This document shows positions 6,074 to 53,756 of a DNA stretch of 59,793 nt, piece after piece (position 1 is the stretch's first letter; the number at the start of each line of letters is the position of its first letter). The stretch covers positions 1 through 59,793 of the forward strand of contig CAYPWV010000006.1 in the NCBI GenBank assembly GCA_964414795.1. Direction: 5' to 3'. The notes under the pieces were generated by a model that saw nothing but the letters and a program-made list of their open reading frames with translations, was not told the DNA's origin and did no database searches. Made by a program: the position numbers and the translations under genes. Source of the stretch: an uncultured Gammaproteobacteria bacterium (GTDB lineage Bacteria > Patescibacteriota > Patescibacteriia > UBA9934).

Positions 6074-6102
6074 GTCATGAGTGATGGGACTATCCGTACC
6101 CT

Positions 6103-6131
6103 GCGCCCCGTGGCGTGGGGCGTTGTTTTTT
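6103..6131 (+). terminator. intrinsic terminator
   Basis: CGCCCCG-TGGC-GTGGGGCG followed by TTGTTTTTT. Confidence 0.75.
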
Positions 6132-8480: not shown

Positions 8481-8585
8481 AATAAAAAGACGCCTTATAA
8501 AAATGATGGTCCGTTTCCTGCACCACCATATAAAAGCGTCGGGTCTGCTGGAACGGTAACTTGAGATAGTCCCAAGATTGGCTCC

Positions 8586-16997: not shown

Positions 16998-18356
16998 TTA
17001 CATCCCCACAATCTCCGAATACGTAGGATAGGCGCGCAAAACAGAACGCATCGTTGACCACGGGATGTTCGCTTGCATGGCAAGAGCGTATTCGTGAATT
17101 ACTTCGCCTGCACGTTCACAAAACAAATGAGCTCCAAGAATCGTCTCTCCATCTCCCGCCAACACCACCTTTAGCACACCTTCTCGATGATTGTCGATCG
17201 CTGCACGGCTTAATGATCGAACAGGAACCGTGTAGGCAAACGCTTTTGCATCGGTATTTTTTGCCGATGCCAAAGTTTGCCCTACGCTTGCAAGCTCAGG
17301 AAGCACAAAAGTGACACGCGGCACTACACGGTTCGTAAACGACTCATACATACGCGTTTTGCCTACGTGTGCCGCATTCCAACCGGCAATGCCTCCCTCT
17401 GTTGCAGCAACGCTCGTAAATTGCAGATCTCCCGTCACATCTCCTGCAAAAAAGATATGTTTTCGATCTTTGATTTTCTCAAGCTGTAATCCTTCAACGT
17501 TAGGTACACGACCCGTAGCAACAAAAAGCTCTTCGGCGATAACCTGCTGACGAGGCAAATCTTTTTCTTGATACGTAACAAAAATATTTTTTCCTTTTTT
17601 CTTTGCCTCAAACACCACGGCATTACAAACAACCTCTACACCTCGCGCGCGAAGCGCAGCTTCTGCAAGAATCGCCAAATCGGCCTCTTCACGCAGCAAA
17701 ATCTGCGGTGCGTATTGCAAAAGCGTTACCCGAACGCCGAGTAAACTCCACAACGTTGCGAATTCACAACCAATAGGACCACCGCCCACAATAACTACCG
17801 ATTTTGGCACATGCGTTTGCGTAACCACATCGCGATACCGAAGCACACGAACTTTTTCATCACATGCAAAAGAAAGAGGCGCATCAACGGCTCCAGTCGC
17901 AATCACAAATGCTTTTGCAGAAATCTTTTTTGTGGTACCAACGATAATCGTATGCGCATCAAAAAATCTCCCTCTCCCTTTCACAACATTAATACCTTTA
18001 TTCATTAAAAAATGCTTTGCTGTTGTACCGTTTTCATACAACGTCTTCAGTAAAGCATCTTTTCTTTTGTGCATCTGCGCAAAATCATAACGAATATCTT
18101 TCGCAAAAATTCCCAGGTGTGCCGCGTCATGCTGAAAGGAATAGTACATTTTTGCGGCGTGGAGAAGCGCCTTGGTAGGAGTGCACGCAAAAAAAGAACA
18201 TTCACCGCCCAAGCGATCTTCCTCAACTACACACACCGAAGCTCCCGCCTCTGCAGCACGTTCCGCAGCCGCAATACCCGCAGATCCCCCACCGAGAATG
18301 ATAACGTCGTAAGTGTATAAAGGCATAGAAGGGGAAGGTTTGAAGGGGCGGAACAT
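16998..18356 (-). CDS. FAD-dependent pyridine nucleotide-disulfide oxidoreductase (dihydrolipoamide/glutathione reductase family)
   Basis: GGGSAGIAAA dinucleotide fold, GGECSFFACTPTK redox-disulfide region and a second GGGPIG fold. The probable true start is MPLYTYDV at 18326. Confidence 0.8.
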   Translation of the reverse strand: MFRPFKPSPSMPLYTYDVIILGGGSAGIAAAERAAEAGASVCVVEEDRLGGECSFFACTPTKALLHAAKMYYSFQHDAAHLGIFAKDIRYDFAQMHKRKDALLKTLYENGTTAKHFLMNKGINVVKGRGRFFDAHTIIVGTTKKISAKAFVIATGAVDAPLSFACDEKVRVLRYRDVVTQTHVPKSVVIVGGGPIGCEFATLWSLLGVRVTLLQYAPQILLREEADLAILAEAALRARGVEVVCNAVVFEAKKKGKNIFVTYQEKDLPRQQVIAEELFVATGRVPNVEGLQLEKIKDRKHIFFAGDVTGDLQFTSVAATEGGIAGWNAAHVGKTRMYESFTNRVVPRVTFVLPELASVGQTLASAKNTDAKAFAYTVPVRSLSRAAIDNHREGVLKVVLAGDGETILGAHLFCERAGEVIHEYALAMQANIPWSTMRSVLRAYPTYSEIVGM

Positions 18357-22001: not shown

Positions 22002-23189
22002 TTATCTCCCCCAAATAACTCGTTCTTGAGGAAGCATCTGCGCATACTCCATAATCTCTAGCCATGCGGTTGCAACAAAAACAACGGATGCACCTTCACA
22101 CGCTTCAACAAGACCCGCTGCTCGCTCCGCATCACCTTCGATCTTTAAAACCCGTGGATCAAACCAACGAAGGGGAATCTTTTTTTCTCGCAAAGAGTTG
22201 ATGATGGCAATCGCGGGAGAAGAACGAATATCATCTGTTCCTGGCTTATACGAAACGCCCAATACCGCAACATGCCCTTGAGATCCCGCTGCAACAAACG
22301 CCGTAATAATTCTTTCAATAAAACGCGCTCGCTGACGGATATTTCGCTGCTCAGCCTCGTGCACAATCGGAAGAGCAATTCCCAGTTCATGCGCAACCGC
22401 AAGAAGTGCTTGCGTGTCCTTAGGAAAACAACTTCCTCCATATCCCAACCCATGCGCCAAAAACCGCGACCCGATACGTAAATCAAACCCCATACTCTCT
22501 GAAATTGTGCGCATATCTGCATCTACTGCTTCTGAAAATTCGCTTATTTCATTTACAAAACTTATTTTCGTAGCAAGAAATGCATTTGCCGCATACTTTG
22601 CAAGTTCGGACGTAACACAGTTTGTTGCAATAATCGGCGTTCCACGTTCTTGCCAAGGTTTATAAACAGCAAACAAACGTTGACGAGCCTCCTCCTGTTG
22701 CGTGCCAAATACAATGCGAGAAGGCATAAGCGCATCGTGTACCGCCGTGCCTTCGGCGAGAAATTCGGGATTTGATGCGAAAAAAAGATGAGGAAATTGA
22801 GTAGCAAGTTTTGCGCATGTGCCCGGAGGAACCGTTGATTTAATCACGAATGAAGAAAGAGGAAACTGTTCCTCAGCCATTTTCGCCGACGCAATAACTG
22901 CAGAAAGATCCGCATGCCCGTCAGCGCCTTGCGGTGTTCCCACTGCACAAAAAATAATGTCTGGCGCAGATACAGATTCATCTACATGAGAAAACGAAAT
23001 GCGATTCGCAGCTACTCCTTCTTGTAGCAACGCAAGAAGTCCTTCTTCAAAAAAAGGAATCTCACCTCTGCGAAGGAGTGCAATGCGATCCTTATCAACA
23101 TCCCGCACGATCACCTCGTGACCATTGCACGCAAACGCCGCAGCCGTCACCAACCCCACCCATCCGGCACCGAGAATGTGAATCTGCAT
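22002..23189 (-). CDS. UDP-glucose/GDP-mannose dehydrogenase family protein
   Basis: N-terminal GAGWVG Rossmann motif and catalytic GGSCFPKD. Confidence 0.85.
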   Translation of the reverse strand: MQIHILGAGWVGLVTAAAFACNGHEVIVRDVDKDRIALLRRGEIPFFEEGLLALLQEGVAANRISFSHVDESVSAPDIIFCAVGTPQGADGHADLSAVIASAKMAEEQFPLSSFVIKSTVPPGTCAKLATQFPHLFFASNPEFLAEGTAVHDALMPSRIVFGTQQEEARQRLFAVYKPWQERGTPIIATNCVTSELAKYAANAFLATKISFVNEISEFSEAVDADMRTISESMGFDLRIGSRFLAHGLGYGGSCFPKDTQALLAVAHELGIALPIVHEAEQRNIRQRARFIERIITAFVAAGSQGHVAVLGVSYKPGTDDIRSSPAIAIINSLREKKIPLRWFDPRVLKIEGDAERAAGLVEACEGASVVFVATAWLEIMEYAQMLPQERVIWGR

Positions 23190-23240: not shown

Positions 23241-23279
23241 CCTTTCACTTCAAACTAACAACTTCATACTTCAAACTCT
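23241..23279. repeat. left copy of a perfect 39-bp inverted repeat
   Basis: CCTTTCACTTCAAACTAACAACTTCATACTTCAAACTCT is the exact reverse complement of 23824-23862. It overlaps the stop codon of the enclosed gene. Confidence 0.95.
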
Positions 23280-23818
23280 TACTGAAAACTTCCCTCTCCC
23301 ACCTTCACTCCCGACGGAGCCGGATTATCATCGCGAGGTTCGAGCATGATGACAACTTCAGAAAAAAGCTTAGGATCAATAACGCCCGTTGCAGGACCGG
23401 CTAAAAAAACACCCACCCATGTGCCGTCAGCACGAGGAGTAAGCGCACCCATATCTACCACATCCGCCAGTCCATCCTTTACCAACCACACATGATATTC
23501 CGAAGAAACGGTATCAATACCCGAAAGCGCAACAAGAATATCGAGCGTTGCAATGTCTCCGTTGATGACTCGGCTTACTCGTCCTATATCACCTCCACTT
23601 GCATACGAAAATACTGTCGCAAGCGCGGGTGCGTTCTCTACATCATTTTTTGCATTCTGGCTCTTTGACGCGACTGTGTCCGTATTTTTTTCCTGTTCCT
23701 CGGCATGTGCGCGGAATGCCCGTAATCCAAACCAAAAAGCACTAATTCCACCCACGAGCAATGCAAAAATCACGATCGCCGGACCAATGCGATGAACTTT
23801 TTTGCGAGCATGAATCAT
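23279..23818 (-). CDS. hypothetical single-pass membrane-anchored protein
   Basis: 179 aa with one N-terminal TM segment (IGPAIVIFALLVGGISAFWFGL). It is exactly bracketed by the 39-bp inverted repeat. Confidence 0.6.
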   Translation of the reverse strand: MIHARKKVHRIGPAIVIFALLVGGISAFWFGLRAFRAHAEEQEKNTDTVASKSQNAKNDVENAPALATVFSYASGGDIGRVSRVINGDIATLDILVALSGIDTVSSEYHVWLVKDGLADVVDMGALTPRADGTWVGVFLAGPATGVIDPKLFSEVVIMLEPRDDNPAPSGVKVGEGSFQ

Positions 23819-29995: not shown

Positions 29996-30010
29996 ATCAG
30001 GCTATTATAG

Positions 30011-30042
30011 AAAAAAAGGGCCGACCCCGCAAAGGGTCGGCC
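30011..30042 (-). terminator. intrinsic terminator of microORF-2
   Basis: GGCCGACCC-TTTGCG-GGGTCGGCC, a 9-bp stem followed by CTTTTTTT on the minus strand. Confidence 0.8.
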
Positions 30043-30067
30043 GCGGAAGGAGCACCGTTGCCGAGCG

Positions 30068-30190
30068 CTACTTCGTGGGACCAGGAGTGCCGATGATGAT
30101 GAGACCGGCCTTGAGGCCCGTCCGAAAACGGGGCTTGTCACTCTTCTTCGGCTGGGTATGGTCGCCTGGCTTGAAAGTGAATTTGAGCAT
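30068..30190 (-). CDS. microORF-2, 40-aa Lys/Pro/Gly-rich peptide
   Basis: MLKFTFKPGDHTQPKKSDKPRFRTGLKAGLIIIGTPGPTK, with GAAGGGAAGG just upstream of the ATG at 30190. It has its own promoter-like block and terminator. Confidence 0.5.
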   Translation of the reverse strand: MLKFTFKPGDHTQPKKSDKPRFRTGLKAGLIIIGTPGPTK

Positions 30191-30261
30191 AACCTTCCCT
30201 TCTGACTTTTTTCCGAAAACCCAGCGATTGCGGATGATCCCGCCTCGTACTGGGTCAACAT

Positions 30262-30290
30262 ATAAAACCAGTTTTCCCCCAAAATGTAAA
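30262..30290 (-). promoter_or_regulatory. candidate promoter of microORF-2 (duplicated block)
   Basis: On the minus strand: TTTACA, 17-nt spacer, TTTTAT. It lies within CTTTACATTTTGGGGGAAAACTGGTTTTATATG, which is near-identical to the block at 30505-30537. Confidence 0.45.
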
Positions 30291-30321
30291 GAAAAACGGT
30301 CGACCCCTCCGAGGCCGACCG
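30289..30321 (-). terminator. intrinsic terminator of microORF-1
   Basis: CGGTCGGCCTCGGAGGGGTCGACCG followed by TTTTTCTTT on the minus strand. Confidence 0.7.
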
Positions 30322-30344
30322 TGAGTTGCACCTTTGCTGGTGCG

Positions 30345-30452
30345 CTAGCCGCGCGGGCGCAGATAGCCCCCGCCGTTGGTGGTCACGGGCCGGAGGCTCG
30401 AGGGGAACCCGTTGCTGATATCTCCAGCTTTCACATTGGTCTTGGTCTTCAT
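30345..30452 (-). CDS. microORF-1, 35-aa peptide (below the ORF-track cutoff)
   Basis: Hand translation gives MKTKTNVKAGDISNGFPSSLRPVTTNGGGYLRPRG followed by TAG. AAGGAG lies 10 nt upstream of the ATG at 30452. Confidence 0.5.
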   Translation of the reverse strand: MKTKTNVKAGDISNGFPSSLRPVTTNGGGYLRPRG

Positions 30453-30506
30453 GATCGTCTTGCTCCTTGTGTCCCAGCGGTCACGGAGAACTCTCCGTTA
30501 GGCGCC

Positions 30507-30535
30507 GAGTCGCCATATGAAACCAGTTTTTGTAC
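30507..30535 (-). promoter_or_regulatory. candidate promoter of microORF-1 (duplicated block)
   Basis: On the minus strand: TTTACA, 17-nt spacer, TTTCAT. It lies within CTTTACATTTTGTACAAAAACTGGTTTCATATG. Confidence 0.4.
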
Positions 30536-30562
30536 AAAATGTAAAGGACGCATCCAGAAAAT

Positions 30563-31063
30563 TTAGATGTTCACAAAAGCAACCGCATACAGTATTCCCA
30601 AGCAGCAACCCACCAGAACATCGCTCAAATAATGCACACCAACGGCGATACGCGAGTAGATAATGAGAAAACAGAGAACAGACGACAGACCGCAGATGGT
30701 GAGGAGAGAAAAAGTATCGGAAAATGTGGGATAGAGCATGAGTATAGTTGCAAAAGCGGCGCTCTCGGTTGCGTGACCGGAAGGAAAAGAATACGTACGC
30801 ACCCACATGGTGTACCCGGAAAGTTTTTCAAAATTGGGACGTTCGCGCTTGATGATTGCTTGAGCAACAAGCAAAGAAAGATAACTCAACACCAACGGAA
30901 TAAGAGGCTTCCACCACGCCATCCAATCCATAGCAGTAACAAAAATCCATAACAACACAAAACCCCACATGCCGTGTGCAGCAATCCATTTCCAAAAAGA
31001 CAACCGTTCTTCGCCAAAGGAACGAAGACGTTTAGTGAGGGTATGATCGAGGGAGAGAAGCAT
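30563..31063 (-). CDS. PAP2-family lipid phosphatase (undecaprenyl-diphosphatase/BcrC-like)
   Basis: KRERPNF, PSGH and SRIAVGVHYLSD motifs. Start set at MLLSLDH (31063), because the longer ORF start lies in GAAGT-word repeat DNA. Confidence 0.8.
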   Translation of the reverse strand: MLLSLDHTLTKRLRSFGEERLSFWKWIAAHGMWGFVLLWIFVTAMDWMAWWKPLIPLVLSYLSLLVAQAIIKRERPNFEKLSGYTMWVRTYSFPSGHATESAAFATILMLYPTFSDTFSLLTICGLSSVLCFLIIYSRIAVGVHYLSDVLVGCCLGILYAVAFVNI

Positions 31064-31242
31064 AGTGAAGTAGTGAAGTTCTGAAGAGGTGAAGTTGGGA
31101 AGTTGGGAAGTGAAAGACCCTGACGATAGGAAGGGTCCAGCGAATAAATAAGGAAATAATACTGACAAATGGGTTTCTCTGGACCCTTCGCAGAGCTCAG
31201 GGTCTCTCGCTCACGACATCCTCTTTTCCCATCTTCACATCT
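31064..31242. repeat. composite palindromic intergenic block (GAAGT/ACTTC word arms)
   Basis: GTGAAGTAGTGAAGTTCTGAAGAGGTGAAGTTGGGAAG.. pairs with ..CTTCACATCTTCAAAACTTCCGATCTTCATCACTTCC. Inner hairpins include GACCCTTCGCAGAGCTCAGGGTC. Confidence 0.7.
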
Positions 31243-32010
31243 TCAAAACTTCCGATCTTCATCACTTCCTATCTTCCCTACTTCCCCCTTCAATCTCTCA
31301 ATCTCTTTCCGTTGTTTTTCTATTTTCGCAAAAATTATTTCTGCGTTCGCAGGACGATTAAGATTCTTTTGCTGATATGCGCAGAGATCTGCAACAGGGC
31401 ATGCCCAACAACGCGGCTTCCCGGGAATGCAAATTGCGCGACCAAACGGAACCATCACCGTATTCACGACGGATTGTACGTCTTGCGGAACAATACGCAG
31501 CAATTTCTTCTCAAGCGCTCCCACGGATGACGCATACGCCCAGCCTAATCGCTGCGTAATGCGAAACACGTGCGTATCAACCGCAATCGCGGGCGTAGCA
31601 AATCGCGCAGCAAGAAGCACGCTCGCCGTTTTTCGCCCAACGCCCGGCAACGTCACCAGCCCTGCCATCGTGCGAGGAATATTGCCGTGATACGTATCTT
31701 GGATCTTTTGTGCAAGCGCAACGATGTGCTTTGCCTTACTGCGATAGAGTCCGATATTCGCAATATATTTTCCCACGTCTTCAGGCGTTGCTTGCGCACA
31801 TGCACGAGCATTGGGATAGGCGCGAAAAAGCTCAGGCAGTGCCTTGAGCACTTGCTCATCTCGCGTACGCGCAGAAAGCACAACAGCAACAAGCATCTGA
31901 AAATCACTTCCCCTATCAAGCGCACCCGACTCAGAAAAATGCGCACGAAGAATGGAGAGCGTTTTTCGAATACGGGTTTGACTCACCTTATTCGGTATAA
32001 CGGACTTCAC
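31243..32010 (-). CDS. nth: endonuclease III (Nth), HhH-GPD DNA glycosylase with 4Fe-4S cluster loop
   Basis: LPGVGRKTA HhH motif and the CIPGKPRCWACPVADLC cluster. It has an extended charged C-terminal tail. Confidence 0.9.
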   Translation of the reverse strand: MKSVIPNKVSQTRIRKTLSILRAHFSESGALDRGSDFQMLVAVVLSARTRDEQVLKALPELFRAYPNARACAQATPEDVGKYIANIGLYRSKAKHIVALAQKIQDTYHGNIPRTMAGLVTLPGVGRKTASVLLAARFATPAIAVDTHVFRITQRLGWAYASSVGALEKKLLRIVPQDVQSVVNTVMVPFGRAICIPGKPRCWACPVADLCAYQQKNLNRPANAEIIFAKIEKQRKEIERLKGEVGKIGSDEDRKF

Positions 32011-32866
32011 AGATAAGTTCGGGATTTTGAACTGGACTCACGGAACAACCCTCTAAAAAAGTAAGTGTTGGAACATTGTCTTGTATATCCAAACGCTGAT
32101 ACACCCAATCCATATACCCCGCATCACCATATCCCGTATAGAGAATAGCACTTCCATTCCAATCAGGAATAAACGTATACCCATCCATTGCACGATAAAT
32201 ACTAAGCGGATACACAATCCACGAACCTGCAACAGCATCCCACTCCAACACCTGAGGCAACCCCGAAACCATTTCTACTTCATCTGAAGGACCATACTCG
32301 TACTCTAACAACAAAAACTTTCTTCCATTTCCCGAACACATCGTATTTCCAAATTTAAAACGATCATCTTCATCTATGACGCTTTCAATGCCTGCAAAAA
32401 ATGTTTCTTGATTTTCAGTGCGAACGTTGAAGTATGCAACAAGTGCGGAACGAACTCCTGCATCAGTAAGCATCTCTTTTGCAGGAACACCAAATTGACG
32501 CATCGCATCACTTGTTGCGTAATTGCGCACATTTGCGCAGTAAGAAACCTGCGCATTTGCGTCACTCCAATTATCGAGTGTTGCCGAAAGAGCAGTTTTT
32601 CCTTCGGGAACATCGGTAACAAAAGGTACTTGTATAAGTTGTGCATCAGTACCCGTAAGAGGAGGATTTTCATGCTCATCTTCTGTTTTGATAATTGGCG
32701 GATCAATGGCGATAACGGTATTTTCTTTGTTGAAACGTTCCTGCACATCATTAGCCAACCACGCAAAATATCCTGCCGCAAGCATACTAATAAGTGTAAT
32801 GCAGCAAAGAAGTGCCATGAATATGACTCGTTTTGATGTGCGCTCTGTAGGGATGGAGTTGTACAT
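31988..32866 (-). CDS. hypothetical membrane-anchored protein
   Basis: 292 aa with an N-terminal TM segment and no recognised motif. Confidence 0.55.
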   Translation of the reverse strand: MYNSIPTERTSKRVIFMALLCCITLISMLAAGYFAWLANDVQERFNKENTVIAIDPPIIKTEDEHENPPLTGTDAQLIQVPFVTDVPEGKTALSATLDNWSDANAQVSYCANVRNYATSDAMRQFGVPAKEMLTDAGVRSALVAYFNVRTENQETFFAGIESVIDEDDRFKFGNTMCSGNGRKFLLLEYEYGPSDEVEMVSGLPQVLEWDAVAGSWIVYPLSIYRAMDGYTFIPDWNGSAILYTGYGDAGYMDWVYQRLDIQDNVPTLTFLEGCSVSPVQNPELICEVRYTE

Positions 32867-38023: not shown

Positions 38024-38452
38024 TCACGTCGGGGATTTCGTTTTTATAAGATCTGTAAAGGAATTAATGAGATCGTAAAATTGTTTCTCGGAAAGAGTGG
38101 TCATTTTTCGAATCAATCGTTTTGTGCTTATCGTTCTCGCTTGTACGAAAACAACCTGCGTTTTTGTGCCATTATATTCAATATCGTAAAACCAACTCCC
38201 TGTTTTTGCTTTAGTTGTTGTTGGAAAAACAAAAACCATATCTTTACTAAATTTCTTTACAATTAATACGGGACGTTCGAAGTGCCAATTTTTTCCATTC
38301 ATTTCAAACCCAACATTTTCACCCAAGCTCGCCCACCACACTTCTCGTTCATAAAAATAGAAATCCGGACGATCCTGAAAATGAATAGAAATCTTTCTAT
38401 TCGTCCAGGCGATAAATCTTTGTACGGGATCGAGAATATCTCCAATATTCAT
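38024..38452 (-). CDS. MazF/PemK-like (CcdB/MazF-fold) protein, paralog 1
   Basis: EREVWWASLGENVGFEMNGKNWHFERPVLIVKKF. It is a clear paralog of 53743-54171. Confidence 0.55.
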   Translation of the reverse strand: MNIGDILDPVQRFIAWTNRKISIHFQDRPDFYFYEREVWWASLGENVGFEMNGKNWHFERPVLIVKKFSKDMVFVFPTTTKAKTGSWFYDIEYNGTKTQVVFVQARTISTKRLIRKMTTLSEKQFYDLINSFTDLIKTKSPT

Positions 38453-39164: not shown

Positions 39165-40985
39165 ATGGAAACGAAAGAAATGCTCCTCGCTGAAGCTGAC
39201 GCCAACGTCCACAGCGCTCGGAAAGCGATCGAGCAAGAGGTACATACAACCACAAAAACCATCGAACGCTACCAACAACCGGGACAAAGCGATCCATTTG
39301 TAAAAGCAAAACTTCTTGCGCACTTTCATGAACGCCTTGATCAGCTCCATCATCTTTTTCCCAGTCCCTTTTTCTTTCGCGGTGACATTGTAAGCGACGA
39401 AGGCAAAGCGCAAACGATTCACTTTGCAAAATTTCCCCTTATCGAAAAAGGCATCTTTTCCTGGACTTCACCTGCAGCTCGACTGCGCTTTGCGGATATT
39501 GGCCCTGTTTCCTATGCTTTGCCAGATAATCCTGCATGGTCGGGAACGCTTTTGCGAAAAGATCAGTTGATGATTGCGGGAGGGGAAATTCGGTTTATGA
39601 CAAGCGAAACCGCAAGCGAAGGACGAACGCTCGTGTATCAAGAACAGCTCTCTCGCCGAAAAACCGACTTCATGCTTCCCGAAATTGTTGCACGCATGGA
39701 GCGCGCACAAGATGATGTGATTCGCGCACATTGGAAAGGATCATTTCTCATTTCTGGTCCTGCAGGATCAGGAAAAACCACCCTCGCTTTTCACCGCATT
39801 GCATTCCTCCTACAATCTCCCGAAACAGCACAGTATTTTTCTGATGAAAACATTATTGTCTTTGTGCAGGATGAAGGAACGCGAAAGTACTTCTCTCGCC
39901 TTCTTCCCGAACTCGGTATTCATAGCGTGACCGTAACTACCTTTGCGGCATGGGCTTTTGAGCAACTCGGCATACACCAAGAAACATTCGTACGTCGACA
40001 AAACGGAACGGATGCACGCATTGACGCGTACGAATATCACAAAATACAATCGCTGCAAGACGCAATACTTTCTCCATCAGCAAAAGATCCTTTCACATTC
40101 CTCGAAAACAGCTATAAAAATCACTTCACTCCCGATGATCTTATTTTATTTACCGAGCAACGATCAGCTCATACGCTTGATCGTTTCGATGTCAGTCTTC
40201 TCCTCAAACACTTTGTACAACAAAAAGGACCCCTCCAAAAAGAAGAAATCTATTTTCAACAGAAAAAAGGATTTGAAGTAGCACGCAAAAAGCGTCATGT
40301 TCCGCTCACCTATTCTTTTATCGTTGTTGATGAAGTACAAAACTATCTTCCCAAACAAATCTCTCTCTTGCGATCATGCATTGATCCCGAAACACAAGCT
40401 ATACTCTACGTAGGTGATCTTCGCCAGCAAGTACTTTTGGGTACGCTGAAAAAGTGGGAAGACGTCGGTGAGTTGTTCGAACAAGGAAGAAAAATAGAGC
40501 TCGATAAGGTGTATCGCAGCACCAAACAGATTCTCCACTACACACAATCACTTGGCTATGCTACACATATTCCCGATGAACTTCGCGAAGGAACGTCTGT
40601 CACTGAAGAAATCCATAAAGACGCCGTCTCAGAAATACAACGCATCAAGCAACTTGCACAAGTACAAGACAAAAAGATGCAAACGGGCGTTATTGGATTT
40701 TTAGAAACCTATCTCGAACTCTTCAAACAAGAGCTCGGATCTATCCCTAATCTTCACGTTCTTACCGTTAGCCAAGCACAAGGTGTTGAATTTGATCGCG
40801 TTTTTATCGTGGGAATTCATCATGATCTTTTCACGTCATCTGCAAAAGATAATAGGACAGATGCGGCATACCAAAAAGATCTCGCAGCTATCCGCAGAGA
40901 TCTTTTATATGTTGCGCTTACTCGTGCAATGGACGAACTCTTTGTCTTTGGAAAACAGACTCTCTCAAAACTATCTATTCGCTAA
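39165..40985 (+). CDS. HelD-like / UvrD-family superfamily 1 helicase
   Basis: An N-terminal module (IHFAKFPLIEKGIFSWTSPAARLRF) resembles HelD/helicase IV. It also has Walker A GPAGSGKTT, VVDEVQN and SQAQGVEFDRVFIVG. Confidence 0.7.
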   Translation: METKEMLLAEADANVHSARKAIEQEVHTTTKTIERYQQPGQSDPFVKAKLLAHFHERLDQLHHLFPSPFFFRGDIVSDEGKAQTIHFAKFPLIEKGIFSWTSPAARLRFADIGPVSYALPDNPAWSGTLLRKDQLMIAGGEIRFMTSETASEGRTLVYQEQLSRRKTDFMLPEIVARMERAQDDVIRAHWKGSFLISGPAGSGKTTLAFHRIAFLLQSPETAQYFSDENIIVFVQDEGTRKYFSRLLPELGIHSVTVTTFAAWAFEQLGIHQETFVRRQNGTDARIDAYEYHKIQSLQDAILSPSAKDPFTFLENSYKNHFTPDDLILFTEQRSAHTLDRFDVSLLLKHFVQQKGPLQKEEIYFQQKKGFEVARKKRHVPLTYSFIVVDEVQNYLPKQISLLRSCIDPETQAILYVGDLRQQVLLGTLKKWEDVGELFEQGRKIELDKVYRSTKQILHYTQSLGYATHIPDELREGTSVTEEIHKDAVSEIQRIKQLAQVQDKKMQTGVIGFLETYLELFKQELGSIPNLHVLTVSQAQGVEFDRVFIVGIHHDLFTSSAKDNRTDAAYQKDLAAIRRDLLYVALTRAMDELFVFGKQTLSKLSIR

Positions 40986-43900
40986 ATCTTCACGTGTGTA
41001 GAGATCGGTATTGCCCGTGTACGTTGTTGTGAGTGACGAACCAAAGCCAAATCGTATGAAGAACGCAGAAGATACGTCGATAACGGAAAGATCCCAATCG
41101 GTACCAAAGAGGGTTTGTGCGATTTCTTCGGTAGGAACCCAGCGAAGAGTAGCAATCGTTGAGTCATCATCAGAAGTTTCTACCGCGTACACCTCGGGCG
41201 TAGATTCGATTTTTACCAGCACCGTTTCTGGCTTGGGCGGCATAAGCAATCCCAAATGCGATGTGCTGAAATCTTCTACCGTAACAACCTCCACGGGCGA
41301 CCAATTATCTTCATACGTAAAGTATGCAGTTCCATTTACAAATGGTCTGCGTGCACATCCCTCATCGACATAGTACACCGTAGAAAGCCAATCAAGCTTG
41401 ATATACGAACCGGTTTCAAATGCACAGGTTCCCAACTCGTCTTCTATATCCGTATCCGTTTCATCATCGATATCTTCTTCGTCATCAGTCTCTTCGGCGG
41501 TATCATCTGCTTCGGCATTAATTCTTAGCAAAGAATCCTGTGAATCTTTTACAGAAGACCCATCTGCTATTGCATAACCAATAATGCGCACATCAAGAAC
41601 GGTATCTTCGTACCGTGCAGGAACTGTCCAATCATACGTTCCGGTCAATTCTTCCGTTTCAAACAGCGTTCTCCACGACGTCGTGCGATGCACACGTGCC
41701 TGGAGAGCCAAGTTCTCAATCGAGGTACTTGCATCCCAATAGAAAGAGACAACTTCCCCTACGTCATACGTCGCCGAAGATACCGGACTCAGCAAATACA
41801 CCAAAGGGGGAACGGGATCATCGTCACGACGACCTCCGTCATCATCAGTAACCGCAACGCTCACCGTTTGATCACTCAAGGCATCAAACGTATCATCAGA
41901 ACTTGCATCAACGATTGAGATCGTGATTATGGGTGTTTCCGACGTACTGTTGGCGTCAGAAACCGAGGAAACAGTAACCGTTTGCGGCGTAGACCAATTT
42001 CCCGACGTAAAGGTAAGTGTTGCGCTATCAACCGTAGCTGAAGTTGTATCAGATGAAGTAACAGAGAAAACAACGTTAGACGTAGGTTGAGAAGCGAGCA
42101 CTACCGTAAAGGTATCCGTATTACCTGTTGATCCTTCGTTTATTCTTGTGGTACCGCTGCTTTCTGCAACAACAAATGCCGCGGTATCATTATCGGTATT
42201 GGCAACAGAAACGTCCGATGGATTAATAGCGTCGTACACTGCATCGGCAGTATCAATCGCATCAATGGTGACAAGAATGGTGTACGCAATATTTCCATCA
42301 TCGACATCATCATCCTGTCCGGTCACCGTAACCGTTTGTGGCGTTGCCCAATTGACCGTGGTAAACGTAAGAATAGATCCGCCGGTCACCGACCCTTCAG
42401 TAGCATCACTCTCCGCGGAATCAACTTCTACATTTCCTGTGGGTTGAGTATTTAACACAACGGTAAACGTTGCGGTTGCGCCAGCCTCTGTCGTATTGCC
42501 AAAAATCGCAGAAACAGTAACTCCCGCAGTATCGTTGTCGGTATTCGTTACGGAGACATCGGAAGCATTCAGCGTGTTGTAATTGGAATCAACTGACGTC
42601 GCAGCAGCAGTGACAATCGAATACGCAATATCTCCATCGTCGACGTCATCATTTACACCGGTAACCGTGACGGTTTGTGCGCTGCTCCAGTTTCCCGAAG
42701 TAAAGGTAAGCGTTGAGACCGCTATCGTTCCTTCTGTTGTATCATTCGAACTTATTCCAAGAGAAACGTCAGCGGTAGGTTGCGCAGTAAGGACGATGGT
42801 AAATGTTGCGGTTACAAGTCCTTCCGTTGTATTTCCGGAAATCGTACCTACCGTAAAACCTGACGTATCATTGTCAGTATTTGTTACCGAGACATTAGAA
42901 GCATTGAGCGTATTGTAATCTCCGTCAGGTGAAGTAGCGGCTGCAGTAACAATAGAGTACGCAATATCGCCATCGTCGAGATCATCGTTAACGCCGGTAA
43001 CGGTTACCGTTTGTGGTGTAGACCAGTTGCCGTTCGTAAACACCACGGAAGAAACTGCAATCGTTCCTTCTGTGGTGTCACTTGAAGAAAGTCCGATCGT
43101 TACATCTGCACTGGGTTGCGTATCAAGTACGATGGTAAACGTTGCGGTTACAGCGGCTTCAGTGGTATTGCCAGAAATTGCAGAAACCGTGATACCCGGT
43201 GTTCCAATAGTCCAATTAGTATTATTCCCAGAAGAAACACAATCGGTAGAACAAGAAACCGCGGTAACATTTGCATTTAAATTGTCCTTTACATCCAAAT
43301 ACTGCACAGAACGCGAACCCTGCGGATCAATACTTGCTTGCGTATCCGTAATACTGCTACGCAAAGAAAGACGCTGACCTGACGCACCTTGGAGCGTTAG
43401 CGTTCCCACGAATGTTTGCGTTACTGATGCAGGGAATGTGAGTGTTGCTGCTGAGCTTACCGTTTTTGTAAAGTTATTGAACGTTGTTGCGCCGGAAATC
43501 GTCTGACTCGTTCCGTCAAGCGTAACCGTTCCGCTGTTATGCGTGAATGTTCCACTGGAATGCGTAAAACTTGCCGAAACGGTTAAGCTTGTTGGCGCAG
43601 TAAATACACCGGAAGAAAGCGTAAAAGTTCCATTCACATCAGCCGTACCCGAACTGCCGGTATAGGTTCCTCCGGAAACCGTAAGACCTGCATTGAAAGT
43701 TTGCGTTGCAGTGCTTGCGGTATAGGTTCCTCCCGAGACCGTTACAAGACCCGTTGATGTGGTCGTTTGCCCATTTGCGTCGTAAGCTCCAAGACTAATA
43801 GTAAACGTTCCCGCAATAACCTTTGCTCCAGCAGATTGATAAATATCCGCCGTATCTACGGAAGGAATGCTGAGATTGTAATAATCGGTACTGCCAAAAT

Positions 43901-46676
43901 CCTTCAGCGTAAACGTATCTGCAGCACTATCGCCATCACCCACATACTGGGTAAGACCAGAATCTGTATCCATGGTTAAGCTCACCGTTTCAGAACCGCG
44001 AAGGCGGAAAGTGTCATTATTTGAATATGTTCCTGTTACGGTAAGTCCATTCCCGGCAAGGGAAAAAATACCGGTGGTTATAGTCAAATTTCCATCAAGC
44101 GTCTCCGTTGCGCCCATCGAAAAGACACTCGAGGCAGCTCCTGCAATAACCAGATGATGATAATTATCGGTAAAATTCGCAATGGTATAGGCAGATGATG
44201 TGCCATCATACGTTACCGTGCTACCGCTTTGCAGATCGGGATAGGTGGCGCTGTCTGCTGTAATCGTTTCCCCTCCTTGCAACTGAAGATTTCCCCCAGA
44301 CTCAACGGTAATTGTTTCGGTACCAGCTCCTGTCACCGTAAGCGCAAAGCCGCTCAAGTCGAACGTTCCTTCTTGAATTGTTAAATCTTGACCGGAGGCA
44401 TCCATCACTAATGCGCTCAGTAAATCTACTTCACCCGCCGCCTTATTCACGGTAATGTCTGCATTGAAACCTCCTGTTATACCCGTGAGATCAAACGCCT
44501 GTGTAGCCGTTCCCGAAAAGTAAAGCGTACCCGTTCCCCCATCAAAAAGCGTTCCAACCGTCACATTTCCTCTCGCATCAAGGGTTCCTGTGGCAGGTTT
44601 TGTGGTTTGACTCACTAATCCATCAGTAAGTGTAAGGGTATTTGTGACAATAAATGAATCGCTGTTAGCTATGGTTTTTGTGGTTCCTCCCGTTGCACCA
44701 AACGTTAAGTTATAAAACGTTTCCGAGGTACTTACATCAATGGTAATAGAGCCACCGTCGAAGGTAACCAAACCGCTACTCGCAGTAAATGTTCCGCCTG
44801 CCGTATGGGTGAATGTACTTGCGATGGTCGTGGTTCCGGAAGTTGTAGTAAACGTTCCGCCGGAAAGTGACCAGGTGTTATTGAAATCTGAAGTTCCTGA
44901 TCCGCCAGAGAACGTTCCCCCTGTTTGACTAAAAGCACCGGAAAAACTAGTTGTTCCGCTTGAGGCGTTATAGATAGCAGTGCTGGAAATTGTACCTGTA
45001 CTGCTGCTCACTGAACCACTTCCTCCAGAAAAAGTTCCTGAGCTCTGTGCGAAAGTGGTGGTTGTTAAACTAGATTCTCCCTGGGTAAACGTTCCACTGG
45101 AAGCTATTGCAAATGTTGTTGTGTTTAAACTAAAGGTACTCATGTTCCAAGATCCACCATTCAGATCAAACGTGTTATTAAGTGTAACGTTTGAAAGTTG
45201 CGTAACAGTTCCCCCTGTTTTGTTAACGTTTACTTTTAACTGAAGGGTTGTTGTTCCGGTAATTGTTTGATTGCCCGATCCGGCAAATAACAGCGTTGTA
45301 GTACTTGCACCTGTATCCCAAGAAGATCCAATACTTACAGCAGTTGTATCGGCTTGGCCCGTCCTACCAACCTGAACTGTCTCACCACTCAATGCCCCGT
45401 TATCTAACGCTAACGTATTTATAACGATAAGAGTATCTCCAGCAGAAAGAGTTTTGGTACTTAAACTGGGAACATCAAAAGTTAAATTATAAAAAGTTTC
45501 ACTCGTTGTGACATTAATTGTGGTATTGCCACCGACAAACTTAAAGGTTCCATTATTATGTGCAAACGTTCCCCCAGCGGTATGAGTAAGATTGGTAACC
45601 GTTAAGGTATCTGAAGTTGAAGTAAATGTTCCACCGGAAAGGGTGTAGGTGCTACTCAGAGTAATAGCACCACTTCCGCCCGCAAACGTTCCCGAGCTTT
45701 GCGAAAAAGTGGAAGCAGTTATCGTTGATGCTCCTTGGGTAAACGTTCCGCTCGATGCCATGGTAAACGTTGTCGTGCTCAGGCTGAAAGAACTCATGTT
45801 CCATGAGGAAGCGCTGTTCATGGCAAACGTATTGTTAAGCGTAACGTTTGAAAGTTGCGTAACGGTTCCTGCGGATTTATTTACATTCACAATCATCTGC
45901 ACCGTTGCAGACGCAGTGATTGTTTGATCGCTTCCACCACCAAACAAAAGCGTGGTAGTACTCGCACCTGTATCCCAAGCTGCACCGACAGTTACCGTTC
46001 CATCCGCTTCAACCGTTCCACCTGATAATGCGCCGTTGGTAAACGTAACCGCATTCGTAGCAAGAAACGTGTCACCTGCAGTAATCGTATTGGTAACAGT
46101 GTCGGTTATACTAAATACTAAATTGTAAAATGTTTCCGTTGTGGCAACATCATATATTCTCGTTGCTGTGCCACTAAACGTAACAGTAGCAGTGCCTCCA
46201 TTAAACGTTCCCCCTGCAGTATGCGTCCATGGGCCCGTGTTCGTCATGCTCGGCGTGCCGCTTGAAGCAAGAGTGAATGTTCCGCTTGCTTGCGTATAGC
46301 CAGTTGTACGCAAGGCAACTACCGCGGCGCTGTTTGTCTGTGTAATGATCCCCGTATAGCCATTAATGTTAATTCCTGCAACATCAATGGATGCGGTAAT
46401 GTTGGCGTCTTTATTTCCCGTAACCGCAAACGCACCATCAAACGTCGCCACGTCAGCCGTTCCTGGAGCAACACCACCACTCCAGTTGGCACCGCAAGAC
46501 CACTTATTCCCGTCTCCCGCCGCTCCTCCACACGTTGCATCTATTCCACCACCTGTCCACGTAATTGTTGCTGCAGAAGCGGGGTGCGCAAAGAAAAGAA
46601 ATCCTACAAAAAGAAAACTGAGAAGAAAAAAGGAAGGGCGCAAATGAAGGAAGAAGGAAAGCATGCAAGACATCAA
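40971..46676 (-). CDS. giant (1901-aa) secreted repetitive surface or adhesin-like protein
   Basis: It has a signal or anchor sequence (..FFAHPASAATITW), long Thr/Gly/Ser-rich beta-helix-like modules, four repeats of about 112 aa, an acidic linker and a distinct C-terminal domain. Confidence 0.85.
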   Translation of the reverse strand: MMSCMLSFFLHLRPSFFLLSFLFVGFLFFAHPASAATITWTGGGIDATCGGAAGDGNKWSCGANWSGGVAPGTADVATFDGAFAVTGNKDANITASIDVAGININGYTGIITQTNSAAVVALRTTGYTQASGTFTLASSGTPSMTNTGPWTHTAGGTFNGGTATVTFSGTATRIYDVATTETFYNLVFSITDTVTNTITAGDTFLATNAVTFTNGALSGGTVEADGTVTVGAAWDTGASTTTLLFGGGSDQTITASATVQMIVNVNKSAGTVTQLSNVTLNNTFAMNSASSWNMSSFSLSTTTFTMASSGTFTQGASTITASTFSQSSGTFAGGSGAITLSSTYTLSGGTFTSTSDTLTVTNLTHTAGGTFAHNNGTFKFVGGNTTINVTTSETFYNLTFDVPSLSTKTLSAGDTLIVINTLALDNGALSGETVQVGRTGQADTTAVSIGSSWDTGASTTTLLFAGSGNQTITGTTTLQLKVNVNKTGGTVTQLSNVTLNNTFDLNGGSWNMSTFSLNTTTFAIASSGTFTQGESSLTTTTFAQSSGTFSGGSGSVSSSTGTISSTAIYNASSGTTSFSGAFSQTGGTFSGGSGTSDFNNTWSLSGGTFTTTSGTTTIASTFTHTAGGTFTASSGLVTFDGGSITIDVSTSETFYNLTFGATGGTTKTIANSDSFIVTNTLTLTDGLVSQTTKPATGTLDARGNVTVGTLFDGGTGTLYFSGTATQAFDLTGITGGFNADITVNKAAGEVDLLSALVMDASGQDLTIQEGTFDLSGFALTVTGAGTETITVESGGNLQLQGGETITADSATYPDLQSGSTVTYDGTSSAYTIANFTDNYHHLVIAGAASSVFSMGATETLDGNLTITTGIFSLAGNGLTVTGTYSNNDTFRLRGSETVSLTMDTDSGLTQYVGDGDSAADTFTLKDFGSTDYYNLSIPSVDTADIYQSAGAKVIAGTFTISLGAYDANGQTTTSTGLVTVSGGTYTASTATQTFNAGLTVSGGTYTGSSGTADVNGTFTLSSGVFTAPTSLTVSASFTHSSGTFTHNSGTVTLDGTSQTISGATTFNNFTKTVSSAATLTFPASVTQTFVGTLTLQGASGQRLSLRSSITDTQASIDPQGSRSVQYLDVKDNLNANVTAVSCSTDCVSSGNNTNWTIGTPGITVSAISGNTTEAAVTATFTIVLDTQPSADVTIGLSSSDTTEGTIAVSSVVFTNGNWSTPQTVTVTGVNDDLDDGDIAYSIVTAAATSPDGDYNTLNASNVSVTNTDNDTSGFTVGTISGNTTEGLVTATFTIVLTAQPTADVSLGISSNDTTEGTIAVSTLTFTSGNWSSAQTVTVTGVNDDVDDGDIAYSIVTAAATSVDSNYNTLNASDVSVTNTDNDTAGVTVSAIFGNTTEAGATATFTVVLNTQPTGNVEVDSAESDATEGSVTGGSILTFTTVNWATPQTVTVTGQDDDVDDGNIAYTILVTIDAIDTADAVYDAINPSDVSVANTDNDTAAFVVAESSGTTRINEGSTGNTDTFTVVLASQPTSNVVFSVTSSDTTSATVDSATLTFTSGNWSTPQTVTVSSVSDANSTSETPIITISIVDASSDDTFDALSDQTVSVAVTDDDGGRRDDDPVPPLVYLLSPVSSATYDVGEVVSFYWDASTSIENLALQARVHRTTSWRTLFETEELTGTYDWTVPARYEDTVLDVRIIGYAIADGSSVKDSQDSLLRINAEADDTAEETDDEEDIDDETDTDIEDELGTCAFETGSYIKLDWLSTVYYVDEGCARRPFVNGTAYFTYEDNWSPVEVVTVEDFSTSHLGLLMPPKPETVLVKIESTPEVYAVETSDDDSTIATLRWVPTEEIAQTLFGTDWDLSVIDVSSAFFIRFGFGSSLTTTYTGNTDLYTREDLANR
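41850..43195 (-). repeat. four tandem repeats of about 335 nt (about 112 aa, Calx-beta/cadherin-like) within the giant gene
   Basis: The recurring unit reads ..SGNTTE..ATFT(I/V)VL..QP(T/S)..V......SD(T/A)TEG......(L/V)TFT.GNWS(T/S).QTVTVTGVNDD(L/V)DDGDIAYSI..NTDNDT. Boundaries are approximate. Confidence 0.7.
43290..46230 (-). repeat. tandem beta-helix-like modules (about 200 aa) within the giant gene
   Basis: Landmarks recur three or more times: THTAGGTF.., SETFYNLTF, DTGASTTTLLF, VNVNK.GGTVTQLSNVTLNNTF. Boundaries are approximate. Confidence 0.6.
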
Positions 46677-48126: not shown

Positions 48127-48701
48127 ACAGCGAAGGCATCTTGCAACCAGTTTACCGGATTGTGCTGGATGTAGGAACGGATACGATCTAATTCACCAAT
48201 GTCACGAATGATACGTTCGTGAAACGATCTGTGCCAACAAAAATATCCTGATGCAACTGTTTTATTTATTTCACGTGATGAAAATGTTTTAAATCCCCGA
48301 ATAATTTCGGTCAACGGATGATTTTTGATATGAATCGTATCCGCGTTCGCATTTGTAGGGGCGGGTTGCAAGTCCGTGGCTGTAGGGGCGGGTTTTAAAC
48401 CCGCCCGTACGACCGCGTTCGTATATGCGTTATGCGAATCAAGAATTCGTATAATACCGTGAACGTGATTGGGCATGATAATAAATTCGTCCAGCGCAAT
48501 ATTTCCATAATGATTCGGTAAATCGAACCAAACCCGAGACACAATATCCCCCATTGCATTCAGAATCATTTTTCCATCCACCACCTCACCAAACATGTGT
48601 TCCCGGCGCGATACACACATCGTCACAAAATAAAGCCCCGGACGTGAATAATCATATCCAGGTAAACGCAACTGATCACGACCAAGAAATGTAATAGCCA
48701 T
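48123..48701 (-). CDS. REP-associated tyrosine transposase (RAYT)-like HUH/Y1 protein
   Basis: HUH motif IMPNHVHGII and a C-terminal WHRSFHERIIRD block. Its stop overlaps the uvrC start (ATGA). It contains family-3 hairpin copies translated as RAGLKPAPT. Confidence 0.7.
   Translation of the reverse strand: MAITFLGRDQLRLPGYDYSRPGLYFVTMCVSRREHMFGEVVDGKMILNAMGDIVSRVWFDLPNHYGNIALDEFIIMPNHVHGIIRILDSHNAYTNAVVRAGLKPAPTATDLQPAPTNANADTIHIKNHPLTEIIRGFKTFSSREINKTVASGYFCWHRSFHERIIRDIGELDRIRSYIQHNPVNWLQDAFAV
48355..48410. repeat. one degenerate plus one intact family-3 REP-like hairpin inside the RAYT-like CDS
   Basis: GTAGGGGCGGGTTGCAAGTCCGTGGC followed by TGTAGGGGCGGGTTTTAAACCCGCCCGTAC. Confidence 0.85.
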
Positions 48702-53375: not shown

Positions 53376-53756
53376 TTATATAGATCTTCCCATGCTCATA
53401 CCAAGGACCATGAGTAATAGCCAAAAAAGATTAGAAAGAAACACGCATACCGAAAAAATCCGACGCTCTTTACGAAAAAAGAAAATACCGCTAACGATAA
53501 ATAGATATACGGGTATGAGTATAAGAGAAAAAATGAAATATACAGAAAAAATACCTAACAATATATTCGTGTATTCTGATGTACCACGAAAAGTATTGGT
53601 ATATGCTGCAGCAAAAAAACCTATATAAAGAAAAATGAGGGAAAAAAGGGGAAGGAATACTAATCGTGTGTACGTTTTTGAACTGGGGAGAACATTGAAT
53701 TTCATATTTTTGACGATAAGATCGCAATGTGGTATCATATATTTACAAATTGCCAT
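53376..53756 (-). CDS. small polytopic membrane protein
   Basis: Up to 126 aa with 3-4 hydrophobic spans. Alternative ATGs lie at 53738 and 53705. It ends 7 nt upstream of the uvrA start. Confidence 0.5.

Follow-up and report, generated by a model that had tools for sequence, protein, structure and literature searches.

A tandem pair of putative small-gene cassettes in a G+C-rich intergenic islet of a Candidatus Uhrbacteria-like genome

Introduction

Paralogous small RNAs (sRNAs) of the OmrA/OmrB and PrrF1/PrrF2 type combine conserved, structured ends with a divergent centre. The ldr, ibs/sib and zor/orz loci are lineage-specific tandem cassettes of small open reading frames (ORFs) with structured leaders. 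Phage morons, independent units of promoter, ORF and terminator that have been inserted between conserved genes, are defined by their own promoter and terminator, a deviating guanine-plus-cytosine (G+C) content and their presence as extra DNA in comparison with relatives (PMC3594210). This report concerns a G+C-rich islet in a 59,793-nucleotide (nt) stretch of DNA (contig CAYPWV010000006.1 of assembly GCA_964414795.1; the whole stretch is referred to below as the window), located between the genes for a PAP2-superfamily protein and ManC. It consists of two units, each with a micro-ORF (ORF1 and ORF2, encoding the candidate peptides pep1 and pep2). Judged from the DNA, the islet is best explained as two autonomous small genes, tandemly duplicated and of horizontal origin, which appear to occupy a chromosomal intergenic hotspot in a Candidatus Uhrbacteria-like lineage.

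Results

Architecture of the islet

The 567 nt from the PAP2 stop (30563) to the ManC start (29995) are made up of two head-to-tail minus-strand units, unit 1 at 30546–30291 and unit 2 at 30291–30011. Each has six parts: a 33-nt block, a 5′ stem-loop, a ribosome-binding site (RBS) region, an ATG-started ORF, a post-stop hairpin and a terminator (Table 1). G+C content in 200-nt windows is 0.58–0.63 within the islet, compared with approximately 0.45–0.50 in its surroundings and approximately 0.47 in the genome.

The block pattern CTTTACATTTTG-N5-AAACTGGTTTYATATG has exactly two matches in the window, at 30514–30546 and 30259–30291 on the minus strand, even when three mismatches are allowed; 100 shuffles searched with the same three mismatches yielded no match. 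Both blocks contain TTTACA, a 17-nt spacer ending in TGG (TGn) and then TTTYAT, which in unit 1 corresponds to a −35-like TTTACA followed, after the 17-nt spacer, by TGG and TTTCAT. A 12-bp perfect palindrome, TTTTGTACAAAA, lies inside the unit 1 block, and unit 2 retains its TTTT/AAAA arms. The two conserved blocks are presumed to be promoter/operator elements.

The 5′ leaders measure approximately 58 nt in unit 1 and 65 nt in unit 2. Folding z-scores of the bodies, comprising the Shine-Dalgarno (SD) region and the ORF, are +1.2 (unit 1) and +0.1 (unit 2), and those of the ends range from −2.9 to −4.5. Structured ends around an open body fit either an mRNA whose ends are protected or an sRNA that exposes its seed region. 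The terminators hold GGGGTCGACC and GGGGTCGGCC, respectively, and their core GGGGTCGRCC is not a dispersed repeat of the repetitive extragenic palindrome (REP) kind. Downstream of unit 2, a TATAAT box (30004–30009) is probably a new promoter of ManC, or its own.

An initial annotation, made from the letters and a list of ORFs, had described this anatomy correctly in most respects. The block, leaders, ORFs and terminators are present, the ORFs give the stated translations and have TAG stops, and the islet is richer in G+C than the DNA around it. The 40-amino-acid (aa) ORF2 is indeed absent from the list as an entry of its own, because it is nested in an 87-aa GTG-started ORF (30068–30331). The promoter blocks are real features at slightly different positions: the first, placed at 30505–30537, was about 9 nt off, and the second, placed at 30260–30292, about 1 nt off. 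A strong SD had been proposed for both units, which holds for AAGGAG in unit 1; the purine-rich GAAGGGAAGG of unit 2 has no SD core and is weaker.

Table 1. Features of the islet and overlapping plus-strand ORFs (window coordinates)
Feature	Position	Strand	Remarks
Unit 1 upstream block CTTTACATTTTGTACAAAAACTGGTTTCATATG	30514..30546	−	Pattern match; 28/33 positions same as unit 2
Unit 1 5′ stem-loop	30473..30509	−	7-bp outer stem CUCGGCG/CGCUGGG and 6-bp inner hairpin; minimum free energy −19.9 kcal/mol, z −2.9
Unit 1 SD AAGGAG	30463..30468	−	10 nt upstream of ATG 30452
Micro-ORF 1 (pep1), 35 aa, MKTKTNVKAGDISNGFPSSLRPVTTNGGGYLRPRG	30345..30452	−	Translation; TAG stop; isoelectric point (pI) 11.1
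Unit 1 post-stop hairpin GCACC/GGUGC	30328..30343	−	3′ untranslated region fold z −4.5
Unit 1 intrinsic terminator	30291..30322 (hairpin 30296–30322)	−	12-bp stem and UUUUUC
Unit 2 upstream block CTTTACATTTTGGGGGAAAACTGGTTTTATATG	30259..30291	−	Begins directly where terminator 1 ends
Unit 2 5′ stem-loop	30218..30256	−	Outer stem CCCAGUA/CGCUGGG, inner GCGG../..CCGC; minimum free energy −19.6 kcal/mol, z −3.6
Unit 2 SD-like purine-rich GAAGGGAAGG	30193..30202	−	No GGAG, GAGG or AGGA core; weaker than unit 1
Micro-ORF 2 (pep2), 40 aa, MLKFTFKPGDHTQPKKSDKPRFRTGLKAGLIIIGTPGPTK	30068..30190	−	Translation; TAG stop; pI 10.7
Unit 2 post-stop hairpin	30047..30073	−	3′ arm GGUGC common to unit 1; fold z −3.9
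Unit 2 intrinsic terminator	30012..30042 (hairpin 30019–30042)	−	10-bp stem and U7
TATAAT box	30004..30009	−	Read from sequence; 8 nt upstream of ManC ATG (29995), directly after terminator 2
163-aa ORF spanning the whole islet	30075..30566	+	Judged spurious
41-aa hydrophobic ORF MVVTGRRLEGNPLLISPAFTLVLVFMIVLLLVSQRSRRTLR	30376–30501	+	Antisense to pep1; TTG start; transmembrane-like core

Paralogy of the two units

Units 1 and 2 align over their full length in nhmmer (E about 5e-6), with identities of 85% in the block, 73% in the stop plus 3′ hairpin, 66% in the terminator, 56% in the 5′ hairpin and 54% in the ORF. For comparison with the last value, ORFs that were shuffled and scored in the same way give 50 ± 2%. 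Block and ORF differ significantly in conservation (Fisher p = 7e-4). In the outer 5′ stem, the 3′ arm CGCUGGG is invariant and the 5′ arm differs at three positions. All three one-sided changes retain pairing (U-G to C-G, G-U to A-U and C-G to U-G), and the inner 5′ hairpins, whose sequences differ between the units, both still form. These pairing-preserving changes are suggestive of covariation, although two sequences do not amount to proof.

In the nhmmer alignment both ORFs stop at an aligned TAG within the conserved 3′ segment. At the DNA level the N-termini (K..K.GD) and the central SSLRPV/TGLKAG are aligned in frame, the net indels being 21 and 3 nt. The comparison supports the view that the units are paralogous, self-contained scaffolds, in which the block and untranslated regions would have been conserved and the payload ORFs have diverged almost to randomness; a duplicated scaffold with diverged payloads is also what the initial annotation had seen. 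It had further raised the possibility that the scaffold recurs with other payloads. No other copy was present in any of the sequences searched, and neither nhmmer nor BLAST detected a third unit in the window or in the 31 loci used for comparison (L001–L031).

Insertion at a variable chromosomal junction

The ManC protein assigns the window to Patescibacteria, and its relatives are annotated as Candidatus Uhrbacteria or as metagenome-assembled genomes of the Patescibacteria group. Locus L002, with a ManC that is 85% identical, has the same gene order as the window (hypothetical gene, EndoIII, PAP2, ManC, YceG) and a PAP2–ManC gap of 36 nt (L002 3462–3500). The gap is approximately 97 nt in L031 (2904–3000; ManC 81% identical), and PAP2 is adjacent to ManC with short spacing in L006 and L008. 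The junction of L029 (2582–3000; ManC 87% identical) is occupied by 420 nt of unrelated DNA, in which a Cys-rich ORF of 39 aa is called, and that of L030 (2193–3000; ManC 83% identical) by a YebC/TACO1-family gene. Neither BLAST nor nhmmer detects any match to the islet in the relatives' loci. On this comparison, the islet is to all appearances a lineage-specific insertion restricted to one groundwater-type Patescibacteria lineage, and the PAP2–ManC junction is evidently a hotspot of variable content among close relatives.

A contig of an independent Logan assembly, on record for two samples, matches the sequence with 100% identity over 6.2 kb, and the islet is therefore not an assembly artefact. 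SRR16481186 is among the groundwater samples in which the contig occurs. The gene at 30563–31168 encodes a PAP2-superfamily protein (PF01569, E 6.5e-19), from which the initial annotation had tentatively drawn a connection to the cell envelope. Because relatives have PAP2 and ManC side by side with no islet, and the junction contains different DNA from one genome to another, this neighbourhood is incidental and the connection loses its support.

Foreign composition and Shine-Dalgarno usage

G+C content at the third codon position (GC3) is 0.72–0.83 in the micro-ORFs versus approximately 0.45 in native genes. SD cores (GGAG, GAGG or AGGA within −20 to −4) precede 4 of the 31 native genes in the window, compared with 10.6% of random 17-mers, which suggests that the lineage may initiate translation without SD, possibly in an S1-dependent or leaderless manner. 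A canonical SD is present in pep1 and in both of the other G+C-rich orphan genes of the window. Because pep1 and these two genes share SD and G+C content, the islet would be one of a few accessory insertions in this genome that are rich in G+C and carry an SD, and it looks foreign and horizontally acquired.

Native upstream regions are G-poor and often pyrimidine-rich, frequently with CTTCCT or CTCCT directly before the ATG. Examples of SD-poor upstream regions are those of 16998–18356, 23279–23818, 31988–32866 and 22002–23189, all on the minus strand. Some native genes have −10-like boxes just 8–12 nt upstream, and some upstream regions consist of repeated ACTTCA-like units, such as cttcatttacttcagacttccaaacttcagaacttcattacttcaaacctcac.

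The first of the two orphan genes is a 643-aa ORF (48808–50739, minus strand) with 61% G+C, a perfect SD (AAGGAGG) and a terminator-like hairpin of its own. It sits between UvrA and UvrC, beside an IS200-like Y1 transposase (48123–48701, minus strand). It has no match in Pfam, PHROGs or PADLOC and no viral relative, and was seen only in the Logan contig of the same organism. The second encodes 235 aa (5366–6073, plus strand; 57% G+C), is opposed to its neighbours, and has the SD GGGAGGA and a strong terminator at 6099–6120 (plus strand). The ORF-list entry for this frame starts further upstream, giving 266 aa from a TTG at 5273. No family match was found for the 235-aa gene, and an exact look-up of it as a called gene returned no record.

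Coding signal in the micro-ORFs

Coding was assessed by alignment-free tests. Among dinucleotide shuffles, 2.9% for unit 1 and 1.9% for unit 2 contained an ATG-started ORF of at least the observed length together with an SD-like motif. G+C content at the first, second and third codon positions is 0.51, 0.57 and 0.83 in pep1 and 0.50, 0.47 and 0.72 in pep2. The third-position excess (one-sided Fisher, p = 0.003 for pep1 and 0.011 for pep2) is as expected of genes from a G+C-rich donor. A codon model was trained on the two other G+C-rich genes of the window, with scores of 7.9 ± 5.6 bits for true frames and −8.4 ± 6.6 bits for wrong ones. Under this model pep1 scores +5.0 bits and pep2 +11.9 bits, the pep2 frame being the best of six. 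With a start, an RBS and a frame-specific codon signal in both ORFs, coding appears favoured, if not proven, and the balance tips somewhat towards both micro-ORFs being translated.

Peptide properties and database searches

The predicted peptides are basic and rich in Gly and Pro, as had been noted, with pI values of 11.1 (pep1) and 10.7 (pep2), net charges of about +4.5 and +6.6, masses of 3.68 and 4.41 kDa, and 25% Gly plus Pro; both are Cys-free. Their grand averages of hydropathy (GRAVY) are −0.74 and −0.68, and their maximal hydropathies over 11 residues −0.03 and 1.55, respectively. Reading of the two sequences revealed no signal peptide, transmembrane segment or double-glycine leader. 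Single-sequence AlphaFold modelling of pep1 gave a predicted local distance difference test (pLDDT) score of 76 and a C-terminal beta-hairpin at residues 20–33, where pLDDT is 84–88. For pep2, modelled likewise without an alignment, pLDDT was 66 and no secondary structure was predicted. A Foldseek search of the Protein Data Bank (PDB) with these weak models returned nothing at E < 2.

Searches of Pfam, NCBIfam, PHROGs, PADLOC and PDB sequences found no relative of either peptide. The single PDB match, to an IgA1 protease, carries no meaning, being added up from scores of approximately 3 bits against the 20-residue repeats of that protein. Neither pep1 nor pep2 was on record as a called gene in an exact look-up, a word-indexed search of 5.8 billion protein clusters with the peptides joined gave no candidate, and HMMER gave 0 matches at E ≤ 1e-3 among 1.84 billion representatives. 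In phage and plasmid collections, blastn and tblastn found nothing but two chance matches (E = 3) in Vibrio phages. Nowhere in the window did an Rfam 15 family reach its gathering score; within the islet the lowest E-value was 1.6, for a score below 35% of that threshold. A scan for tRNA and tmRNA found nothing.

The block pattern had nine matches in metagenome contigs, all of them A+T-rich chance occurrences without the downstream features, and two block patterns searched in viral contigs gave chance matches only. In two IMG/VR contigs, L040 (about 8454–8487) and L042 (3704–3737), there is a phage promoter-like TTGACATTTACA-N12-AAACTGGTTTTATATGG with 17 contiguous bases in common with the islet block. 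This AAACTGGTTTTATATGG match was also judged to be due to chance; the ATG there opens an ordinary phage gene.

Antisense ORFs

Gene callers annotate the plus strand of the islet instead, calling the 163-aa ORF as 157 aa in the Logan contig and as 110 aa in the window. It has no Pfam match and finds only itself in the 5.8 billion clusters, a search that served as a proxy for related islets. Its G+C-rich codon position is the first over unit 1 and the third over unit 2, and because of this flip it is incoherent as one gene. Over unit 2 it scores −6.2 and −7.0 bits, resembling a wrong frame. The 41-aa ORF lacks an SD, a promoter and a terminator, and unit 2 contains nothing equivalent; it probably results from the reading of purine-rich Lys and Thr codons in antisense. 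Across the islet, the plus strand has one promoter-like site at chance level (30135–30162) and no terminator.

Genes elsewhere in the window

Pfam scans of essentially all sizeable ORFs of the window found housekeeping functions, including UvrABCD, ribonucleotide reductase, a penicillin-binding protein, GreA, MraZ/MraW, the CCA-adding enzyme and iPGM. The 60 kb hold no machinery for bacteriocins or for ribosomally synthesised, post-translationally modified peptides (RiPPs), whether YcaO, LanB/C/M, radical S-adenosylmethionine, lasso or ATP-grasp enzymes, an exporter of the C39 ATP-binding-cassette (C39-ABC) type or an immunity gene. The sole ABC-2 pair is 27 kb from the islet. The window also contains two MazF/PemK-type toxin genes (38024–38452 and 53743–54171), a giant 1901-aa ORF without any Pfam domain (40971–46676) and a gene for a bacterial SET-domain protein (1304–1732), all on the minus strand.

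Discussion

A model of two autonomous micro-genes

We give about an even chance to the reading that the islet holds translated, moron-like micro-protein cassettes acting inside the cell. Each cassette would be transcribed on the minus strand from its own 33-nt promoter/operator block into an RNA of approximately 215–250 nt; with TTTYAT as the −10 element, its start would lie 1–2 nt ahead of the 5′ stem. A hairpin 1–2 nt from the transcript start is the geometry of 5′-terminal stabiliser hairpins, and the 5′ stem-loop would probably act as a 5′ stabiliser or as a protein-binding site. Within the unstructured body, the SD-led ORF would be translated into a basic peptide of 35 or 40 residues, and the post-stop hairpin and intrinsic terminator would define and protect the 3′ end. 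Since the block is conserved in both units (28 of 33 positions), the two genes are presumably co-regulated; since the peptides have diverged almost completely, they may be fast-evolving or functionally split. The lack of an export signal, and of processing or export genes nearby, makes intracellular nucleic-acid- or ribosome-binding accessory proteins their most likely identity. As a side-effect of the insertion, two strong terminators would now separate ManC from PAP2, and the TATAAT box after terminator 2 indicates that ManC transcription was probably rewired.

Several observations weigh against this account. For transcription, a scan with the sigma-70 consensus calls neither block, and at a 17-nt spacing the A at the second position of the −10 element is absent. 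For translation, the SD of unit 2 is weak and, in the centroid fold, partly paired with codons 4–6; native genes show no visible reliance on SD, making efficient SD-led translation in this host uncertain. Open frames of 35–40 codons are not rare in DNA of 60% G+C, and when no SD is required, ORFs like these occur in 13% (unit 1) and 9% (unit 2) of shuffles. Another open minus-strand frame over ORF1, at +5.2 bits, ties with pep1, and the similarity between pep1 and pep2 is not significant (p = 0.06). Each ORF has its diverged paralogue as its only homologue. The intracellular nucleic-acid-binding role is suggested by composition, and there is no prophage context, which makes "moron" an analogy: the islet would work like one without being a strict member of the class.

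Alternative explanations

The main alternative, possible if unlikely and already listed in the initial annotation, is that the units are tandem sibling sRNAs, non-coding or dual-function, with shared ends, with variable centres that pair with different targets, and with incidental ORFs. Conserved, structured ends and divergent, unstructured centres are compatible with such RNAs without being specific to them. Both units end in a terminator of their own, the peptides lack homologues, and the frequency of such ORFs in shuffles without an SD requirement (9–13%) would allow them to be fortuitous. Coding is nevertheless indicated by the GC3 excess in both ORF frames and their positive codon scores, by SD-like motifs at plausible distances in a genome where SD is otherwise at background, and by the homologous TAG at which both ORFs stop. 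Moreover, no Rfam family matched even at E ≤ 10, and there is no significant complementarity to the units elsewhere in the window, where the best match is 13 nt long (E 0.44).

It appears improbable that the islet is non-functional or decaying debris of horizontal transfer, left by a tandemly duplicated fragment from a G+C-rich donor, even though it is an orphan found in one lineage and absent from all relatives, its composition is deviant and the junction is a variable hotspot. The ORFs have become nearly random in relation to each other, yet 28 of 33 block positions, the stem-loops, the terminators and open frames with a start and SD have been retained. A scaffold kept while its ORFs were randomised points to selection after duplication, or to very localised gene conversion.

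A further proposal, of a reusable expression scaffold made up of the 33-nt promoter/operator, the 5′ stem-loop and the two 3′ hairpins and carrying fast-diversifying cationic micro-peptides, possibly effectors of an episymbiotic Patescibacterium against its host, competitors or phages, is quite improbable. If true, it would offer a first glimpse of a class of micro-proteins in the Candidate Phyla Radiation (CPR) that standard gene callers miss systematically, annotating an antisense ORF here instead. The reading in which the peptides are secreted antimicrobials, bacteriocins or RiPP precursors, exported and perhaps modified, and directed at the competitors or host of this presumably episymbiotic bacterium, is very improbable. 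Tandem, strongly diverged paralogous micro-ORFs, cationic Pro/Gly-rich products and the cationic C-terminal beta-hairpin modelled for pep1 (pLDDT 84–88 there, from a single sequence) would suit it. Reading of the peptides, however, identified no signal peptide, double-glycine leader or Cys and, at positions where one would be plausible, no Ser/Thr-Cys or acidic pattern for ring formation; there was no match in NCBIfam, Pfam, PHROGs or PADLOC, the 60 kb hold neither modification enzymes nor a C39-ABC exporter, and the flanking genes are housekeeping. The classes that the initial annotation had named as typical (secreted peptides, bacteriocins, RiPP precursors and small toxins) consequently find no support in these hydrophilic, Cys-free, leaderless peptides without family match or dedicated machinery.

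Among small toxins, a module similar to type I toxin-antitoxin systems, in which an overlapping antisense RNA would control a small toxin mRNA that has a long, structured 5′ untranslated region, is suggested by the resemblance of the islet to ldr, ibs/sib and zor/orz loci; in one version, the 41-aa ORF with its transmembrane-like core would be the toxin and the unit 1 transcript the antitoxin. This is extremely improbable. Pep1 and pep2 are themselves hydrophilic (GRAVY −0.74 and −0.68), the 41-aa ORF is TTG-started, has no SD, promoter, terminator or unit 2 counterpart and is an expected by-product of antisense Lys and Thr codons, and PADLOC and Pfam have no match.

There is equally little reason to regard the islet as the leader of a ManC operon, with tandem riboswitch-like or leader-peptide attenuators. 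The T run of unit 2 does end at 30012, 16 nt before the ManC start (ATG 29995), and pep2 contains a run of three Ile. Relatives, however, express ManC without an islet, the bodies show neither structure nor conservation from one unit to the other, no Rfam match and no convincing antiterminator alternative were found, a TATAAT box follows terminator 2, and control of GDP-mannose synthesis by isoleucine would be physiologically senseless.

Practically no credence attaches to the plus-strand 163-aa ORF (30075–30566) as the real gene with the repeated block encoding an internal protein repeat, since this long open frame, although called as 157 and 110 aa and although the blocks are 255 nt (85 codons) apart and hence in the same frame, has no Pfam match or homologue other than itself, a G+C-rich codon position that moves from 1 over unit 1 to 3 over unit 2, wrong-frame codon scores in unit 2 (−6.2 and −7.0 bits), a GTG start without SD, and a course across two hairpin-plus-T-run terminators of the other strand.

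Four further candidates were rejected: integron attC sites, since both a core/inverse-core pair and an integrase are missing; a sigma-54 promoter, since its spacing cannot be matched in both units; a relic of ribosomal protein L34, for which Pfam gave no match; and a graspetide-like TxKxxGD motif, which lies at the very N-terminus and is accompanied by neither a leader nor an ATP-grasp enzyme.

Significance

If the ORFs are translated, they would add two orphan micro-proteins to a phylum with an essentially uncharted small-protein repertoire, and would indicate that SD-led foreign genes can settle where native genes do not visibly use SD. The islet is a concrete case of automatic annotation substituting a spurious antisense ORF for two likely micro-genes, and it marks the PAP2–ManC junction as an insertion hotspot in the lineage. 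As a single occurrence without homologues it has limited general importance, and no known biology hinges on it.

Comparison with known systems

Arrays of class II bacteriocin or RiPP precursors likewise place small, diverged paralogous ORFs side by side; the islet peptides differ in having no leader motif, Cys or family match, and no genes for processing, export or immunity lie within 60 kb. The type I toxins of ldr/rdl, ibs/sib and zor/orz loci are, similarly, strain-specific, repeated small-ORF insertions with structured 5′ untranslated regions and terminators. Their products are membrane-active hydrophobic helices, in contrast to the hydrophilic, basic islet peptides, and no antisense RNA gene is evident at the islet.

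OmrA/OmrB and PrrF1/PrrF2 are adjacent paralogues of approximately 200 nt, each with a promoter and a terminator to itself, in which the 5′ and 3′ ends are conserved and the centre diverges, an arrangement that the islet would share. Its centres, unlike theirs, carry SD-led ORFs with a third-position G+C excess, and the islet has no Rfam match and no target complementarity detected in the window. Dual-function sRNAs such as SgrS/SgrT, RNAIII/hld and SR1/SR1P unite, as the units would, structured RNA modules and a translated micro-ORF in a transcript of approximately 200–250 nt. They have no sequence relationship to the islet, at which there is also no evidence of a base-pairing function.

Phage morons differ from the islet in their surroundings: the islet is flanked by PAP2, ManC, YceG, UvrD and EndoIII, and phage collections hold no match to it. 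It also differs in being a tandem pair of paralogues and in having payloads of only 35–40 codons. The likeness lies in the organisation. As in morons, each unit has its own promoter-like element and intrinsic terminator, the G+C content departs from that of the neighbouring DNA (0.58–0.63 versus approximately 0.47), the islet constitutes additional DNA separating two genes that adjoin each other in relatives (567 nt versus 36 nt in L002), and its function would be an accessory one.

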